DNA of 11,462 nucleotides from a virus (Duplodnaviria; Heunggongvirae; Uroviricota; Caudoviricetes). This document shows, piece after piece, positions 1-11,462 of this stretch. The position numbers and the translations under genes are program-made. Positions within the stretch are counted from its first letter, which is position 1; each line of letters starts with the position of its first letter. The notes beneath the pieces were generated by a model. It was given only the letters and a program-made list of their open reading frames with translations, did no database searches and was not told the DNA's origin. The stretch spans positions 1 through 11,462 of the IMG/VR virus record IMGVR_UViG_2703719355_000014; one strand, written 5' to 3'.

Positions 1-73
1 GCCATACTCCTCCGGCAGAAGCAGAAAAAGCTTATTATGCTTCCATCGGAAACGATGATCTGGCAGCCTGAGT

Positions 74-1234
74 TCACAGATAAAACACTCTCCAGGAAAC
101 CCGGGGCGGTTCATAACGCTCAACCAGACGTTTAAGAATCATGTATCGCACACGACGGATAATGAAGCGATCAAAGTCACCACAGAACATGAATTTTTTA
201 CCCGCCCCGATATCATCAATTTCCTGATCAATGACATACGGTACATTCAACACTGAAGCAGGTGCCACACCAACAATATCCGGCAACCATAAAGGGCGTC
301 CCTGACCGTCTTCCATCTCACTGATCAGTTTCAGCGTATTATCGTTAAACGCCAGGCGGAATTTCGGCCCGCGACGATATGCAGGATCAATGCTGTGTTT
401 CAGAGCCAGAATTTCCTGCCACTTCACCGTATTTGCCGCGGCAGTCTGTGTTGTGCCGGTCACAGATGCGACCAGCCCTTTGGGTTGTTTAGGCGTACCA
501 GCACCAGTTCCCTGAATCAGATAACGGGCTTCACCACGACCAATACGTTCAGCAATGCGACGGGCAAGATAAGCTTCCATATCGATCGCGCTGTCCTGCA
601 GCAACTCATTAGACACACGAATGATTTTCGATGTCATTTTGAGCGCCCCAAGACTTCCCATACCGAAATCGGTGTCTTCTTCACCGGCTTCTTCATTTTC
701 GCCCAGCAGAACACCAACTTCGGAAGTACCATCAGCTGTTGCCCACTCCATAGTGCGACCGTCAGAAGTGGTCAGAATCTGCGCCACACTGGCGATGCCA
801 CCGTAGGATTTCATCTTCTCAACAACTTTCGCCAGGAATGTTTCTGGTACGGTATATCCGCCCTTTTCATCCTGAGCTACACCCTGGGCACGAAGTTCAC
901 GCAACGCCTTTCGTTCTTCTGATGTCAGCTCACTGGCACCGTGACGCATCCACTTATCAAAAACCTGAGCTCGTTTCTCATCCTGTTGCGGATTGTTTTC
1001 CGGATCAAGATTCTGACGCTGCTCTTCCTCATTGCTTTCAATGTACGCCTGATCCTGACGACGCAGTTCTTCTTCGCGTGCAATTCGTTCATCAAGCGCT
1101 TCCAGTTCGGATTTTGCTTTGTTCCACTCAGTGCGCTGCTCTTCCGTCCATGCGTTATCACCAATTTTTTCATTCAGGGCGCGCATGTCAGTTGCGATAG
1201 TATTACGTTTCTGTTTCAGTTCATGCAGTTTCAT
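74..1234 (-). CDS. Major capsid protein, HK97 family
   Basis: 386-aa ORF with a charged coiled-coil N-terminal region (delta-domain-like) followed by a Gly/Thr-rich body typical of the HK97 fold. It follows the prohead protease in canonical order. AAGGAA Shine-Dalgarno 6 nt upstream of the ATG at 1234; TGA stop at 74-76. Confidence 0.85.
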   Translation of the reverse strand: MKLHELKQKRNTIATDMRALNEKIGDNAWTEEQRTEWNKAKSELEALDERIAREEELRRQDQAYIESNEEEQRQNLDPENNPQQDEKRAQVFDKWMRHGASELTSEERKALRELRAQGVAQDEKGGYTVPETFLAKVVEKMKSYGGIASVAQILTTSDGRTMEWATADGTSEVGVLLGENEEAGEEDTDFGMGSLGALKMTSKIIRVSNELLQDSAIDMEAYLARRIAERIGRGEARYLIQGTGAGTPKQPKGLVASVTGTTQTAAANTVKWQEILALKHSIDPAYRRGPKFRLAFNDNTLKLISEMEDGQGRPLWLPDIVGVAPASVLNVPYVIDQEIDDIGAGKKFMFCGDFDRFIIRRVRYMILKRLVERYEPPRVSWRVFYL

Positions 1235-3066: not shown

Positions 3067-3217
3067 GCGTCCCCCTTCTGACCATAACCAGTGCACCCAC
3101 CAGCAGTAAAGCACCGGACAAAATCAGAGCCGGAGCCATACCAAACTGCAGGTAAACTCCGCACGTAAGCAGGCCAAAACCAGTCAGCCCGATAACATCA
3201 GCAATTAGTGATTTCAT
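3056..3217 (-). CDS. Hypothetical small membrane protein (53 aa), candidate only
   Basis: Not in the ORF track (below cut-off). Its ATG at 3217-3215 overlaps the terminase large subunit TGA stop (3216-3214) as ATGA, suggesting translational coupling. Translation [53 protein letters not shown] has two hydrophobic helix-like segments and a basic C-terminus. No clear Shine-Dalgarno; overlaps the portal 5' end in another frame. Confidence 0.3.
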
Positions 3218-4935
3218 AGAATTAAGAGATCATCGTCCGGATCAAGAGATGAGAGGAAATCGCCAGGTTCTTTGAGCATTGCCCGACCGATCGTCATAAT
3301 CAGTGCAACCGCACCATCGATTTTGTTTTCCGCCTGCTCCTTGACGGGCTTCACTAAATCATCGTTACCAGGCATGTTTTTGCCGACCACATTGCCGATA
3401 CACCAGGTCATGATGGGATTGCCGTCATGATGAAAGCGTCCCGATTCAATCGCTGCTTCCAGCTCTTTCATCGGATCGGACATATTGGCGAAGTTCTGGA
3501 CGATAGTGACGGGATTCAGATCTTCATCAGCAAGGTCATGTGACAGCCCGGTCGCCCCGAAGGGGTCGATGGGTGACTCACTGACCGGGCTGATTTTGTT
3601 CGCCGCTTTGGCCTAGCGATAATCCACCTCTGCACCATCGGTAACGGTCAGGACGCCCATTTCCACCCATTTCTGAAAGCGTTCGGCTGTCCGTCTATCT
3701 TCATTTTTCTCGACGCTGTACACCGTGTCATACGGTACCCAGAAGCGCGGGGCCACACTGTAGTAATGCGTTTTACCGTCAATCTCGCGGGTATAAAGTC
3801 GCGCCATGCTGTTCATATCCAGCTTACGCGCCAGGTCAAAGGCCAGAATGCACGGCTGCCCCTCGAACTGCTCAAGGGTCAGTGATTTATCCTCGCAGCT
3901 CTGCCAGCTCACCAGGTTGAAATACGCCGAACGTGCCGACACCCAGATATTGAGGTGTTTCGTTTTAAAGACGTTTGCCAGACGGGCGTTATTTTTCGCA
4001 CGCTGCTGCTGACTTAACAAAAATTCGCGATAAACCGACACGCCAATATTTGGATTGGCTTTTTCCAGCACCTGCGGGTCGGTCCAGTCGTCACCTTCAT
4101 CAACGGTATAGATGATCCCGAACAGTTCATCGTTAGGCACCGAGCCGTTGAGCATCTCGATGACTTCCCGCCGCTTGTCGTAGCACAGCCCCTCAATGTT
4201 GTACCCGGCGGTGGTGATGGCCCACATCAGTGGCTGACGTCGCGCCCCCATCCCGGTAAGCATTGTGGTATAAAGCGCATCGGTGGCATGCTCGTGATAT
4301 TCATCAACCACGGCACAGTGGGGTGATGAACCATCACCGGGGTTACCGATCAGCGGTTCAAACCGCGCGCCATCCTCCGGACGGTTCATGTTTGAGGCGT
4401 TAACCTCAATCCCGAACGCTTCCGTCAGCATGGGTGTGCGTTTACACATCAGTCGCGCCGGGCGAAAGACTTCCCACGCCTGTTTCTCTGTCGTGGCACC
4501 GGAATACACTTCCGCGCCAAACTCGTTATCACAGGCAAAACAATACAGGGCAACACCGGCAGAGATTGCTGATTTGCCGTTCTTACGGGGGATTTCGGTA
4601 TACACCTCCCGGAAGCGGCGCAACCGGGTGCCTTTATTGACCCAGCCAAACGCACAGCAGATCACAAATAGCTGCCACGGCTCCAGCGTGATGGGCATCC
4701 GTTTGAATGCCCACTCACCCTTGGTGTGCGGCAACAGCTGAATAAATTTCGCGGCCCGTTCAGCCAGGTCCTTGTCGAAGCGGTAACGAAACGACTTACT
4801 TTTTTCCGCCATCAGGTCATCAAGATGGCACTGGCAGGCCTGAATCACAAACTGGCAGGCAACAATCTTTCCGCGCACGACATCCCGGGCATACTGATTG
4901 GCAGCATTTACGTTGGGGTAAGATTTCCGGCTCAT
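3214..4935 (-). CDS. Terminase large subunit, interrupted by one in-frame TAG at 3613-3615 (possible pseudogene, suppressed amber or sequencing error)
   Basis: ORFs 3613..4935 (440 aa) and 3214..3483 are in the same frame. I translated 3484-3612 by hand and it is open in that frame (…[55 protein letters not shown]…), so a single TAG separates the two parts. Read through, the product is about 573 aa, a typical size. Its ATG overlaps the terminase small subunit stop (ATGA at 4935-4932). Confidence 0.8.
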
Positions 4936-5426
4936 GACTCGATGATTTTCAGAAACGGGTTAGTGGCTTTCTTCTTCCCCGCCAGGCCAATCAGACGCTG
5001 GCGGCTGCTGGGGTCGAGTCCGAGCATTGCCCCCGTGCTGCTCATCTCGGACTCCTGTTCTTTCTTGGCGGTCAGCTCCGGGTTTTTGACCATACCGCCC
5101 ATTGCACCGGTAATGGTGTTGCCCTGGCTGGCAATATTTTTCACGGCACGTCGCCAGAACTCATAGGCCACGCACCACCGCTCAAGCACCGCGAGGTCAG
5201 TCACGCACAGCAGGCCCTGACCGCAGAGTTCTTTGGTTGTCAGTTGCCACATGATCGTGGCGAGAGGGAGATCTTCTTCAGCGAACCACTCCGGTGGCTC
5301 AACACCTTTGATGGGCGTAAAAACAGGTTCATCTTTATTCAGGGCTCGCTTGCCGGGGTTTCCGGCCAGCGCCTTGCGCGCCGTTGGCTTGGGGCGACGC
5401 CCGGAACGCCCCGCCGTTCCAGCCAT
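4932..5426 (-). CDS. Terminase small subunit (P27-like family)
   Basis: Basic N-terminus [14 protein letters not shown]..., located immediately upstream of and overlapping the large terminase. The ATG at 5426 has an AGGAG Shine-Dalgarno 8 nt upstream; the ORF-track start at 5435 is a GTG without better support. Confidence 0.75.
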
Positions 5427-5551: not shown

Positions 5552-5902
5552 TCACTTTAACCGTTCACGGGCCGTCTTCGCCTTATGGCAGGGCCAGCAC
5601 AGACTCTGCAGATTACTGTCGGCATCAGTGCCGCCATGCGCTTTAGGAACGATGTGGTCAACGGTTTTCGCCTCACGCACCACACCAGCATGCAGACATG
5701 ACTGACACAGGCCTTTGTCACGCTTCAGCACACGTCCACGGATGACGTCCCATTTCGCACCATAACCGCGCTGGTGTCGGGACTGGCCTGGCTTGTATTG
5801 CTTCCAGCCTTCGCTTTTGTGGCTTTCGCAGTAGCCTGACGGGTCTGTAGTGGTATTACGGCAGCCGCGAACGCGGCAGGCTTTTGGGATTCGTGATGGC
5901 AT
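5552..5902 (-). CDS. HNH endonuclease (terminase-associated)
   Basis: Zinc-binding HNH motif (CQSCLH...VDHIVPKAHGG...NLQSLCWPCHKAK). The ATG at 5902 has a GGAG Shine-Dalgarno 5 nt upstream; the ORF-track N-terminal extension to 6001 has no support. Position directly upstream of the terminase genes matches the HK97 arrangement. Confidence 0.8.
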   Translation of the reverse strand: MPSRIPKACRVRGCRNTTTDPSGYCESHKSEGWKQYKPGQSRHQRGYGAKWDVIRGRVLKRDKGLCQSCLHAGVVREAKTVDHIVPKAHGGTDADSNLQSLCWPCHKAKTARERLK

Positions 5903-6427: not shown

Positions 6428-6721
6428 ATGAAAAAAATGTTGTTTTCTGCCGCTCTGGCAATGCTTATTACAGGATGTGCTCAACAGACGTTTACTGTTG
6501 GAAACAAACCGACAGCAGTAACACCAAAGGAAACCATCACCCATCATTTCTTCGTTTCGGGAATTGGACAGGAGAAAACTGTTGATGCAGCCAAAATTTG
6601 TGGCGGCGCAGAAAATGTTGTTAAAACAGAAACCCAGCAAACATTCGTAAATGGATTGCTCGGTTTTATTACTTTAGGCATTTATACTCCGCTGGAAGCG
6701 CGTGTGTATTGCTCACAATAA
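6428..6721 (+). CDS. bor: Bor lipoprotein (lambda Bor-like, serum-resistance lipoprotein family)
   Basis: Translation from the ATG at 6428 (MKKMLFSAALAMLITGCAQQTFTV...) has a signal peptide and LITGC lipobox, is 97 aa, and matches lambda Bor closely from memory. AGGA Shine-Dalgarno 7 nt upstream. Opposite strand to the lysis genes, as in lambda. Confidence 0.9.
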   Translation: MKKMLFSAALAMLITGCAQQTFTVGNKPTAVTPKETITHHFFVSGIGQEKTVDAAKICGGAENVVKTETQQTFVNGLLGFITLGIYTPLEARVYCSQ

Positions 6722-6752: not shown

Positions 6753-7214
6753 CTATCTGCACTGCTCATTAATATACTTCTGGGTTCCTTCCAGTTGTTT
6801 TTGCATAGTGATCAGCCTCTCTCTGAGGGTGAAATAATCCCGTTCAGCGGTGTCTGCCAGTCGGGGGGAGGCTGCATTATCCACGCCGGAGGCGGTGGTG
6901 GCTTCACGCACTGACTGACAGACTGCTTTGATGTGCAACCGACGACGACCAGCGGCAACATCATCACGCAGAGCATCATTTTCAGCTTTCGCATCAGCTA
7001 ACTCCTTCGTGTATTTTGCATCGAGCGCAGCAACATCACGCTGGCGCACCTGCATGTCAGTAATTGTCGAGTTCGCCAGCTTCAGTTCTCTGGCATTTTT
7101 GTCGCGCTGGGCTTTGTAGGTAATGGCGTTATCGCGGTAATGATTAACAGCCCATGACAGGCAGACGATGATGCAGATAACCAGAGCGGAGATAATCGCG
7201 GTTACTCTGCTCAT
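6753..7214 (-). CDS. Rz: Rz i-spanin (inner-membrane spanin subunit)
   Basis: 153 aa with an N-terminal TM segment and coiled-coil periplasmic domain; nearly identical to lambda Rz from memory. Overlaps the R stop and contains Rz1 embedded in the +1 frame. Confidence 0.9.
6812..6994 (-). CDS. Rz1: Rz1 o-spanin (outer-membrane lipoprotein spanin subunit), embedded in Rz
   Basis: 60-aa ORF wholly inside Rz in another frame. Signal peptide with VVGC lipobox and a proline-rich mature region (PPPPPAW...PPPDW), as in lambda Rz1. Confidence 0.85.
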
Positions 7215-8188: not shown

Positions 8189-8401
8189 TTAAGCTGTGTG
8201 GCGAAGTGACCACTCTTAACACGATACAATAGTTTTTGCGTACGCGTTAGCATTTTTGATGGAAGTTAATGGTTGTTAATCTTATACTCAGTAAACAAAA
8301 TTTATGCCGCCTTGAGCATGATGCGACATTAGGCACATGTTTGGATCTTCCTCGAAGATTCGTGCGGTAGCTATGCTCAAAATCCAATCAGCTCATAAAA
8401 C

Positions 8402-8430
8402 ATACTATGGGTTTTAAATGCTCATTCCAA
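8402..8430 (-). promoter_or_regulatory. Candidate sigma70 late promoter (pR'-like) on the minus strand
   Basis: Minus-strand TTGGAA (-35; plus 8425-8430), 17-nt spacer, TAGTAT (-10; plus 8402-8407). Overlaps the start codon of the first cassette gene on the other strand. Found by eye only and lies in AT-rich DNA where such matches arise by chance. Confidence 0.2.
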
Positions 8431-9167
8431 CATCTCTATCAAAACAACCAGTAATCGAAGCTGCTTTCGAAATGCGTTTTTCTAAAGAAACACAAATATC
8501 GGAAATAGTTCCAGGGTTTCTTTTTCACGCTCTAGGTTGTACAAAACCAGTAATTAGTTTACCACCCAGTCAAATACCTAAAAATGTTCGTGAGGGAGAT
8601 GAACAATTACATTACGCAGTTGTCAGTCGCCTCGAAATCGAAGGGTACTATATTGGACTAAGTGACCATGGTGTTGTTGTATCCACCAGCACCAAATATC
8701 AAGGGTGGAGTCATTTTAGAGAAAAAATCATTCATGTATTAAATGAGCTTAACAAATTAAATTTAAATGACAACATCATCCGCTACTCATTAAAGTATGT
8801 AGATTTTTTCCCAAAAGAAGACGATTCTAATTTATTTGATAAGCTAAACGTCAGCTTAAATATGGCTGGCGAGTCTATGTCTAATTATCCGATCAATATC
8901 AGAATCGATAAAAATGAAGGCGCATTTCTAAATATAATTCAAATATTATCTCATGCTTTAGTCATGTCAGATAATGGAGAATTTAATAAAAAAGGACTAA
9001 TCCTAGACATAGACAGTATTAGGCAAATCACTAATACTGATGAAATAGATAAGTTTAAAAACGAACCCAAAAAAATTCTTGATGATCTTCACTCCTGTAA
9101 TAAATTAGCTTTCTTTAGTTGCCTTAAAGAGTCAACAATTCAAGAACTAGAACCATCCTACAAATAG
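8418..9167 (+). CDS. Hypothetical protein (249 aa), first gene of AT-rich cassette
   Basis: Long ORF on the strand opposite to the phage late operon, with Asn/Lys/Ile-rich composition typical of low-GC DNA. TAG stop. No catalytic motif recognised; weak GGG-type RBS only. Confidence 0.7.
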   Translation: MLIPTSLSKQPVIEAAFEMRFSKETQISEIVPGFLFHALGCTKPVISLPPSQIPKNVREGDEQLHYAVVSRLEIEGYYIGLSDHGVVVSTSTKYQGWSHFREKIIHVLNELNKLNLNDNIIRYSLKYVDFFPKEDDSNLFDKLNVSLNMAGESMSNYPINIRIDKNEGAFLNIIQILSHALVMSDNGEFNKKGLILDIDSIRQITNTDEIDKFKNEPKKILDDLHSCNKLAFFSCLKESTIQELEPSYK

Positions 9168-9182
9168 AAATGGTGGTATGAT

Positions 9183-9527
9183 ATGTATCCGTCTCATCAT
9201 GTTTATCGAGCTCAACTTCAAGTATTAACTTTGGTTTTATATGGTCTGCATATAACAGCATTAACAGACATTGCCCAAAATCAACAGCATGGTCCTCAAC
9301 AAAGTTTAATCGTCAAAAATCACGCTTTGGAGTATAAGTCTTCAACTACCGATTCAGTTCATTCCATCACACAAACATATAAAGCAGGGAGCACAATCTC
9401 AGTTGATCAAAGACTTGCAGTCTCGATGACAAACTTTTATGAAAAATTATCAACAAACCAGGTGTCTTTAGGCAGTGAAATAAATAAAGTCGTTCATGCT
9501 TCACTGTGGGATTTATACTTGGATTAA
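9183..9527 (+). CDS. Hypothetical protein (114 aa), second cassette gene
   Basis: ATG at 9183 is preceded by a GGTGG Shine-Dalgarno 6 nt upstream and lies 15 nt after the upstream stop. N-terminal hydrophobic stretch (LQVLTLVLYGLHITAL) may be a membrane anchor. Stop TAA at 9525-9527. Confidence 0.6.
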   Translation: MYPSHHVYRAQLQVLTLVLYGLHITALTDIAQNQQHGPQQSLIVKNHALEYKSSTTDSVHSITQTYKAGSTISVDQRLAVSMTNFYEKLSTNQVSLGSEINKVVHASLWDLYLD

Positions 9528-9530
9528 GTG

Positions 9531-10145
9531 ATGAGTAATAACATTTTTGATATCGAGAAATTCAAAGATCAAATTCCATATTATTTAACAGCTCCTCAAA
9601 AAGAAGGGCTAATAAATGCACTTAGAGATTTCCCTGAAAACACTAACTACTACCTTACCAATTATCATGATGATCTGAAAAATGCTGCACTTCAGGGAGA
9701 TATATTTAAGGAGCTTACAGTATATTCAATTAAAGGGACTAAAAAAACACGAGGAATTATATTAAGCAACAGTTGCGATATAGATACAAGTAATAATCGT
9801 GATGTGCCAATGCGTGCAGTCTTTGCTCCGTTAGTAAGTTTATCTAAGTTCGAAGCTATTCTTCTCTCCAACGGAGTTTCTAAGACTTCAATAGATAGCA
9901 AAATTGATGCTATAAGGAAGCAGTTAATTACTAATATTTTTTATCTTCCTGAATCAGACAACTTAGAAGAATGCATCGTTTTTCTTGATGATGTATACCA
10001 ATTACCAACGGAAGAATTACAAAAACTCTTGAATGATAAATGCAAAGCCATAACTTTAAGTCAAGTTGGTTTCTACATTTTACTATTCAAAATATCTATT
10101 CACTTTTGTAGATTCCATGAAAACATACAACGATTCGATCATTAA
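9531..10145 (+). CDS. Hypothetical protein (204 aa), third cassette gene
   Basis: Start ATG 9531 (or GTG 9528) immediately follows the upstream TAA, giving TAAGTGATG and suggesting translational coupling. No recognisable domain. TAA stop directly followed by an intrinsic terminator. Confidence 0.7.
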   Translation: MSNNIFDIEKFKDQIPYYLTAPQKEGLINALRDFPENTNYYLTNYHDDLKNAALQGDIFKELTVYSIKGTKKTRGIILSNSCDIDTSNNRDVPMRAVFAPLVSLSKFEAILLSNGVSKTSIDSKIDAIRKQLITNIFYLPESDNLEECIVFLDDVYQLPTEELQKLLNDKCKAITLSQVGFYILLFKISIHFCRFHENIQRFDH

Positions 10146-10533: not shown

Positions 10534-11451
10534 TCAGGCCAGCACGCCAATTGCCAGCGCACGATCGATAAAACGAAATATCAGCTCCAGCTGGGAGCCA
10601 TACTTCTCTTCAAATGCCACGGTATCCGCATGCAGCTCGTCGTGATGCTTTCTGCACAAAGGCAACACAAAGAGATCATGCGCTTTTGTACCCATTCCAC
10701 CCTGACCGTGGCCTATCAGGTGGTGGGGATCATCAGCAGGCTTTCCACAACATGCACACGGTTGCGTCTTAACCCAGCGCGTGTACTTTTCATTAACCCA
10801 GCGGCGACGTTTTGGGCGTAACATAAAAGACTCCGGCGACTCCGGATCCACTTTCAGCGCCAGCACCTTTTTCGCTTTATCCTGGATGATGCTGGTGGCA
10901 GGAACCGAAGGCACAAGGTCACTTTCCCGGGTGACAGATGGCACAACAGGCTTCGGTAATCTCAGTGCCTTACGGGCTGCACTTTCCGGTAAGGCATCCG
11001 CCAGATCATTACGAATCAACCACCAGCACAGTTCCGGCATTGTCACAACGTGACTGTCATCAAAACCGAGATCCCGACGCACAACAGACAACACCCAGCG
11101 GGCACAGTTATCCGTTGCCATTGATTCCAGCCATTCCGTGAACTGATCGCGCAGCTGGTTATCGCAGTGCCAGCACAGACGGATTGCGCCCGGAGCGTGT
11201 CGCATTGTGGTCATGTTCTCGCTGTGCCAGTCGGAATGAGGCCACTGGCAGCCTTTTTCACGAAGTAACCAGCTTTCAAGACATTCCACGCCACCAGCAC
11301 GACGGATCACTGCCTCATTGCGGAACACGGCCCGAACGGCAGGATCATCCGCCAGCGGTTGTGATGCCGCCGGAACGGCACCACTGGCGAAAGATGAGTA
11401 ACGTTCCGGCTCAGGCTCCAGCAGGACACGCCCCTGCATAAACAGGGGCAT
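10534..11451 (-). CDS. DUF968-family phage protein (putative HNH-like zinc-binding protein, YdfU-like)
   Basis: C-terminal CxxC...HH...C..HH motif (QPCACCGKPADDPHHLIGHGQGG...LCRKHHDELH) typical of DUF968 proteins that sit upstream of Q in lambdoid prophages. The frame stays open from 11452 to the window end, so the true start may lie beyond the window. Confidence 0.7.
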   Translation of the reverse strand: MPLFMQGRVLLEPEPERYSSFASGAVPAASQPLADDPAVRAVFRNEAVIRRAGGVECLESWLLREKGCQWPHSDWHSENMTTMRHAPGAIRLCWHCDNQLRDQFTEWLESMATDNCARWVLSVVRRDLGFDDSHVVTMPELCWWLIRNDLADALPESAARKALRLPKPVVPSVTRESDLVPSVPATSIIQDKAKKVLALKVDPESPESFMLRPKRRRWVNEKYTRWVKTQPCACCGKPADDPHHLIGHGQGGMGTKAHDLFVLPLCRKHHDELHADTVAFEEKYGSQLELIFRFIDRALAIGVLA

Positions 11452-11462
11452 CAGCTCTGAAC

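Follow-up and report, generated by a model that had tools for sequence, protein, structure and literature searches.

The large terminase subunit (TerL) gene of the SfV-like Escherichia coli prophage analysed here is very probably a recent pseudogene, in which a 12-nt deletion killed the gene and was then followed by decay. The amber codon that now divides the gene is the junction of this deletion and not a nonsense substitution. The deletion has been inherited by a small set of closely related prophages, its product is missing two of the three catalytic residues of the terminase nuclease, and further damage to both the gene and the element has followed. The window, by which we mean the whole stretch of 11,462 nt that was analysed, is the entire contig CYGN01000095.1 of the E. 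coli draft assembly GCA_001286505.1, and because it is a whole draft contig both of its ends are assembly breaks and not biological boundaries. It carries the late region of an SfV-like prophage, whose packaging and head module is of the HK97 type.

The break in the large terminase gene

The late genes in this part of the window all lie on the minus strand, and its translation from 4935 to 3214 yields 440 sense codons, a TAG (3615..3613), a further 132 sense codons and finally a TGA (3216..3214). This, together with the Pfam nuclease domain that spans the TAG, confirmed the proposal of an earlier sequence-only reading that the two terminase open reading frames (ORFs) lie in one frame and are split by a TAG at 3613-3615, and translation likewise bore out its statement that the 129 nt past the TAG (3484..3612) are open in that frame. 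The 5′ part of the gene (3616..4935, minus strand, 440 codons) encodes the ATPase domain in full and about the first 60% of the nuclease domain; a TerL_ATPase (PF03354) match at residues 86-256, with E=1.4e-26 and over the curated cut-off, establishes the presence of the N-terminal packaging ATPase domain, while a TerL_nuclease (PF20441) match at residues 268-439 covers profile positions 4-165 of 286. The 3′ part (3217..3612, minus strand), now untranslated, consists of 132 in-frame codons closed by the TGA at 3214..3216 and encodes the remainder of the nuclease domain. Upon translation of 3612..3217 the TerL_nuclease match covers profile positions 186-286 of 286 (E=5.9e-19), and the open frame after the TAG is no accident, because the nuclease profile continues there.

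The next in-frame ATG, GTG or TTG after the TAG is the ATG at 3483, as a result of which ORF finders list two ORFs, of 440 aa and 89 aa, deposited as CUA54044.1 and CUA54041.1, respectively. The 89-codon ORF (3214..3483, minus strand), which gene callers begin at this first in-frame ATG, is a by-product of the gene break and not a gene of its own. It is virtually impossible that the protein naturally ends at the TAG and that the downstream ORF represents a separate gene, as the gene calls, and nothing further, speak for such an arrangement, while the counterparts in E. coli, in phage SfV and among 27 Enterobacterales homologues each consist of a single polypeptide of 575-577 aa and the Pfam nuclease domain is divided by the TAG. 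The orthologue comparison by which the sequence-only reading would have recognised a natural protein end at 3613-3615 therefore gave the opposite answer.

DNA alignment with the intact TerL genes of E. coli EC1515 and phage SfV placed the TAG (3613..3615, minus strand) at the junction of a 12-nt deletion. Where the intact genes read CGC TAC ATC CTC GA(A/G) GAG GCC (R-Y-I-L-E-E-A), the window reads CGC TAG GCC, and the stop codon is made up of the TA from TAC (Tyr441) and the G from GAG (Glu445). The deleted 12 nt are either ACATCCTCGAAG or CATCCTCGAAGA, the breakpoint being uncertain by 1 nt (A), and beyond this 1-nt ambiguity the alignment revealed no tandem repeat or microhomology at the deletion, which provides no evidence for reversible slippage. 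The gap is the sole indel across 5.8 kb of head and packaging genes as compared to strain TF5, and the gene measures 1,722 nt in the window as compared to 1,734 nt, uninterrupted, in its relatives. When the 12 nt were put back an open frame of 577 codons was obtained, with 3 nt different from EC1515. A TAG derived by single-base substitution from a sense codon, as in a classical amber allele, is not what this TA(C)...(GA)G junction represents. The expectation that intact relatives would display a sense codon at that site did not hold, as no single such codon exists and the alignment shows a deletion instead; similarly, the description of the two ORFs as separated only by a TAG is correct with respect to the shared frame and the single stop, but relative to the intact genes 12 nt are also gone from that position.

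Carriers of the deletion and intact relatives

Carriers came to light solely via exact-protein look-ups, which located an identical 440-aa product on 13 contigs and the 89-aa ORF on 23 contigs. These were derived from NCBI assemblies, from Logan assemblies of independent read runs and from ENA gut-metagenome assemblies. Seventeen carrier loci, taken from both sets of contigs and with the window's own record not counted, were examined, from the NCBI assemblies GCA_002519325.1, GCA_007648485.1 and GCA_000446745.2, the Logan assemblies of SRR3976438, SRR19768701, ERR178211, SRR21431843 and ERR14121124, and the ENA metagenome assemblies, and the same junction was present in all 17. Over stretches of up to 11 kb these carriers share 99.88-100% identity with the window, and they differ among each other by at most 6 SNPs per 11 kb; all carrier contigs end short of chromosomal DNA. 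Scans for the exact junction returned 0 matches in GTDB species representatives, JGI metagenome contigs and IMG/VR.

The extra 12 nt were present in all 1,254 full-length matches obtained from 5,426 complete E. coli genomes. Some 1,100 complete E. coli genomes, as well as phage SfV, contain an uninterrupted gene annotated as "terminase large subunit" with 98.0-99.1% identity, and the full-length gene was also found in phages SfII, SfIV, SfI and ST64B, in addition to SfV. Outside the carriers the in-frame stop is absent, be it from the 1,254 E. coli copies, from the related phages or from the 27 homologues. The deletion allele is real, rare and limited to a near-clonal prophage group.

A sequencing or assembly error, whereby all 12 nt, or else some sense codon, would be present in the true genome, is scarcely conceivable. 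The window is a draft contig built from short reads, with a repeat at its end, and the junction is absent from complete E. coli genomes, both of which could be taken to point towards an artefact; however, the same junction was recovered in 17 of 17 carrier contigs that had been assembled independently by different pipelines, and a clean loss of 12 nt without a homopolymer or tandem repeat is atypical for sequencing error. The identical junction in 17 contigs from isolate, read-run and metagenome assemblies refutes the sequencing error that the sequence-only reading had offered as one of its explanations. Another of its explanations, a recent inactivating mutation, is supported, as none of the intact relatives has the lesion, which is confined to near-clonal carriers and removes essential nuclease residues.

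Effect on the protein and later damage

The RNase H-like nuclease of HK97 TerL has a catalytic centre formed by D302, D388 and D471 (PMC9410871). The intact orthologue matches HK97 TerL (6Z6D_A) over residues 80-557 with E=1.3e-26, and the three HK97 residues align with D367, D461 and D544, all of which are invariant in 27 homologues from Escherichia, Salmonella, Serratia, Xenorhabdus, Photorhabdus, Proteus, Providencia, Morganella, Yersinia, Klebsiella, Dickeya and other Enterobacterales. Residue mapping assigned the first catalytic Asp, D367, to the codon at 3835..3837 (minus strand) within the 5′ part of the gene, while the alignment to HK97 TerL 6Z6D placed D461 (3565..3567) and D544 (3316..3318, both minus strand) in the 3′ part. 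The TAG falls between D367 and D461, and the product is left without D461, D544 and the C-terminal 137 residues. Intact relatives have a complete three-Asp nuclease domain in one polypeptide, and so does the ancestral gene as reconstructed; the product of the window does not. The deleted segment is ungapped in 27 of 27 homologues, and within it I442 and E444 are invariant. An AlphaFold2 model of the intact homologue P0031, for which 26 homologues of 78-98% identity were employed, draws a helix at 439-451, the model being unreliable (mean pLDDT 36.6, pTM 0.25).

Cleavage at cos in HK97-type phages requires the TerL nuclease and the adjacent HNH protein (PMC9410871), and judging from the sequence both packaging function and infectivity would be lost. 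We propose that the ancestor of the small near-clonal prophage group lost 12 nt in codons 441-445 (Y-I-L-E-E) and that the junction by chance read TAG. Translation thus ends after residue 440, with the ATPase domain kept and the RNase H-like nuclease domain partial, and such a 440-residue product would be unable to cut concatemeric DNA at cos, assembly of a packaging motor being very unlikely. The prophage would from then on yield no infectious particles and be passed on solely with the host chromosome, while the gene has drifted later, acquiring R36C and then P250L or R106C in sublineages, and an IS629/IS1203 element has entered the capsid gene in the window strain.

The substitutions to which this scenario refers are located within the 5′ part of the gene. 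R36C (codon 4828..4830, minus strand) places a Cys where the 27 homologues have an invariant Arg and is common to every deletion carrier with a readable codon 36; among 1,123 E. coli records that hold the gene, none matches the 81 nt around it exactly. P250L (codon 4186..4188, minus strand), a Leu in place of a Pro that is invariant in the homologues, is confined to the carrier sublineage of the window, and it must be later than the deletion, because carriers L015, L017 and L018 have the deletion yet retain Pro250. L015 possesses a separate extra change, R106C. Codons 36, 106 and 250 are all invariant in the 27-homologue alignment, and R36C, P250L and R106C together have the pattern of a gene that has been released from selection.

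Damage extends to the major capsid gene. Positions 1..113 (plus strand) represent a 113-nt end of an IS629/IS1203-type element (IS3 family), which adjoins the capsid gene and within which the contig stops; this segment shows 100% identity to the terminus of an IS1203 copy that is annotated in E. coli O157:H7 MB9-1 (8371..8484 of locus L004), and homology to intact prophages begins at 114. In the truncated capsid gene (74..1234, minus strand) the first 374 residues equal those of the intact 409-aa protein and are followed by 12 unrelated codons and a stop, so that the first difference occurs at residue 375 of 409 and the IS replaces the last 35 capsid codons. This IS-capsid junction was present only in the window and in the ERR178211 contig, whereas in the other carriers the capsid gene encodes the full 409 aa, and their genes for connector, sheath, tube and tape measure look intact. 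Since the capsid gene is full-length in these other carriers, the terminase deletion came first and the IS insertion afterwards. The contig of carrier L017 also stops in this IS sequence, at another site ~270 bp further on, and the two IS ends suggest an IS-rich host background. The head and tail genes visible in carriers L005, L015 and L016 look intact, terL apart, which fits recent inactivation and would equally fit a still-functional element.

This last point bears on a conditionally functional amber allele, whereby a suppressor host, or low natural read-through, would provide near-full-length TerL and hence a viable phage. Basal read-through of UAG is above zero, the frame is kept across the TAG and in most carriers the remaining morphogenesis genes seem undamaged; nevertheless, we regard such an allele as very unlikely. 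The predicted read-through product has 573 aa, in which five conserved residues (Y-I-L-E-E) are replaced by one, and this net loss of four falls in a segment that is never gapped and that includes the invariant I442 and E444. In addition, R36C is present in all carriers with a readable codon 36, and individual sublineages have P250L or R106C on top of it. A search for a suppressor tRNA in the vicinity found none, as neither the window nor the 17-kb carrier locus L005 contains a tRNA gene, and the allele is confined to the near-clonal set and does not occur among diverse prophages. A suppressor would also read past the natural TAG of Rz, a late gene at 6753..7214 (minus strand), and of the TIGR04255-family gene at 8418..9167 (plus strand); the remark in the sequence-only reading that the other late genes whose stops it checked end in TGA or TAA is valid for the other 13 called genes but not for these two, for which TAG is the normal stop. 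As the TAG stems from a deletion, the prediction for a suppressor host changes, and the suggestion of a suppressible amber allele found no support, as suppression would still leave four conserved residues missing, on top of R36C and P250L. Programmed read-through or recoding was also considered and is not supported, given that the stop is unconserved beyond the near-clonal set, that the window and L005 have no tRNA gene and that TAG ends other genes.

The persistence of the allele in at least 23 contigs from several sources, and the fact that gene callers report both pieces, could alternatively indicate a repurposed fragment, in that the 440-residue protein, or a two-piece terminase formed with the 89-aa ORF, is under selection in a domesticated prophage. 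Such repurposing is extremely unlikely. The 89-aa ORF begins past D461, so that the active site could not be rebuilt from two pieces, and there is no in-frame ATG, GTG or TTG from the TAG to 3483. Moreover, the N-terminal piece gathers changes at invariant residues of the ATPase domain (R106C and P250L). Vertical transmission accounts for the persistence of the allele, the lesion being very young, as the carriers differ by no more than 6 SNPs per 11 kb. More generally, there is only a slim chance that the break is non-neutral, be it that a 440-residue ATPase fragment is kept for a new role, or that a read-through terminase, four residues shorter, still packages and gives rise to a low-titre mobile phage. 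Inactivation of terL by the deletion, followed by decay, remains the reading that we prefer.

Known relatives, genomic context and significance

The closest counterparts of the gene are TerL of phage SfV (orf2, NP_599034.1) and its E. coli orthologues (for example WP_044527610.1, EC1515), to which it is 98.0-99.1% identical at the nucleotide level over the whole gene and with which it shares as neighbours an HNH endonuclease, a P27-family small terminase, a portal, an HK97-family prohead protease and a capsid gene. Unlike the 577-codon ORFs of SfV and EC1515, the gene in the window is without 12 nt in codons 441-445, its junction reads TAG, and both R36C and P250L are present. The resemblance to HK97 TerL (6Z6D; Fung et al. 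2022, PMC9410871) consists of an ATPase joined to an RNase H-like nuclease, with three aligned Asp residues, and the HNH gene is adjacent in the window as is gp74 in HK97; however, HK97 TerL is a distant relative with profile-level similarity only, and the polypeptide from the window stops before the second catalytic Asp.

The packaging module of the window has the HNH and small terminase genes upstream of TerL, and the portal, protease and capsid genes downstream. The small terminase gene (P27 family/Terminase_4; 4932..5426, minus strand) was assigned by a PF05119 match (E=4.2e-21) and by the annotation of relatives, as was the HNH endonuclease gene (5552..5902, minus strand; Pfam HNH, E=2.5e-15), which occupies the position typical of an HK97-type cos module, and both genes are apparently intact. 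A bor/iss-type lipoprotein gene (6428-6721, plus strand; Pfam Lambda_Bor) is situated between the Rz and HNH genes, and in an O157:H7 relative it is annotated as the serum-survival lipoprotein Iss. The segment 5903-7275 (upstream of HNH, bor, Rz) forms a mosaic joint, with no match to TF5 and 96% identity to the O157:H7 MB9-1 prophage, while on either side of it TF5 is otherwise the closest prophage (98-99%). On the opposite strand, between the Q antiterminator and holin genes, lies a three-gene cassette (8418-10145, plus strand). In lambdoid phages the interval between Q and holin is a cargo position. The first cassette gene specifies a TIGR04255-family protein of 249 aa (NCBIfam, E=2.6e-27), the cassette gave no PADLOC or Pfam match, and the other two proteins, of 114 aa and 204 aa, were also without an NCBIfam match; the cassette could be lysogenic-conversion or defence cargo. 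A DUF968 gene (10534-11462, minus strand) runs past the contig end.

Defective prophages with small late-gene lesions and IS insertions are commonplace in E. coli and Shigella, and the window resembles them in that a prophage that otherwise looks intact acquired one small lesion in an essential late gene, after which came an IS insertion and drift through point mutations. There is no difference in kind, and what is specific is the allele itself, a 12-nt deletion with a TAG junction; a prophage pseudogene of this kind is already known. In a classical amber a single base has been substituted, and under suppression the protein regains its full length and differs in no more than one residue. Laboratory amber mutants of terminase and head genes share with the window an in-frame TAG in a phage gene, but unlike these the window has its TAG at a deletion junction and suppression would leave four residues missing. 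The HK97 amber mutant amC2, for example, was grown on the suppressor strain LE392 (PMC9410871). The same 90% identity cluster contains another truncated TerL, P0003, of 521 aa, found on 32 contigs of Shigella sonnei and E. coli, which apparently goes back to a separate lesion within this gene family. Several long chimeras called 'terminase', in which the protein is fused to sheath or portal domains (P0030, P0039 and P0040), also came up in the homologue search.

The significance of these findings is small beyond annotation. CUA54044.1 and CUA54041.1 are better annotated as one terminase pseudogene, and an in-frame stop between the halves of a gene may be a deletion junction, which only alignment to intact relatives reveals. 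In surveys of prophages and transduction the prophage is to be counted as defective, and the 12-nt junction, combined with R36C, P250L and the IS site, may serve as a lineage marker for it.
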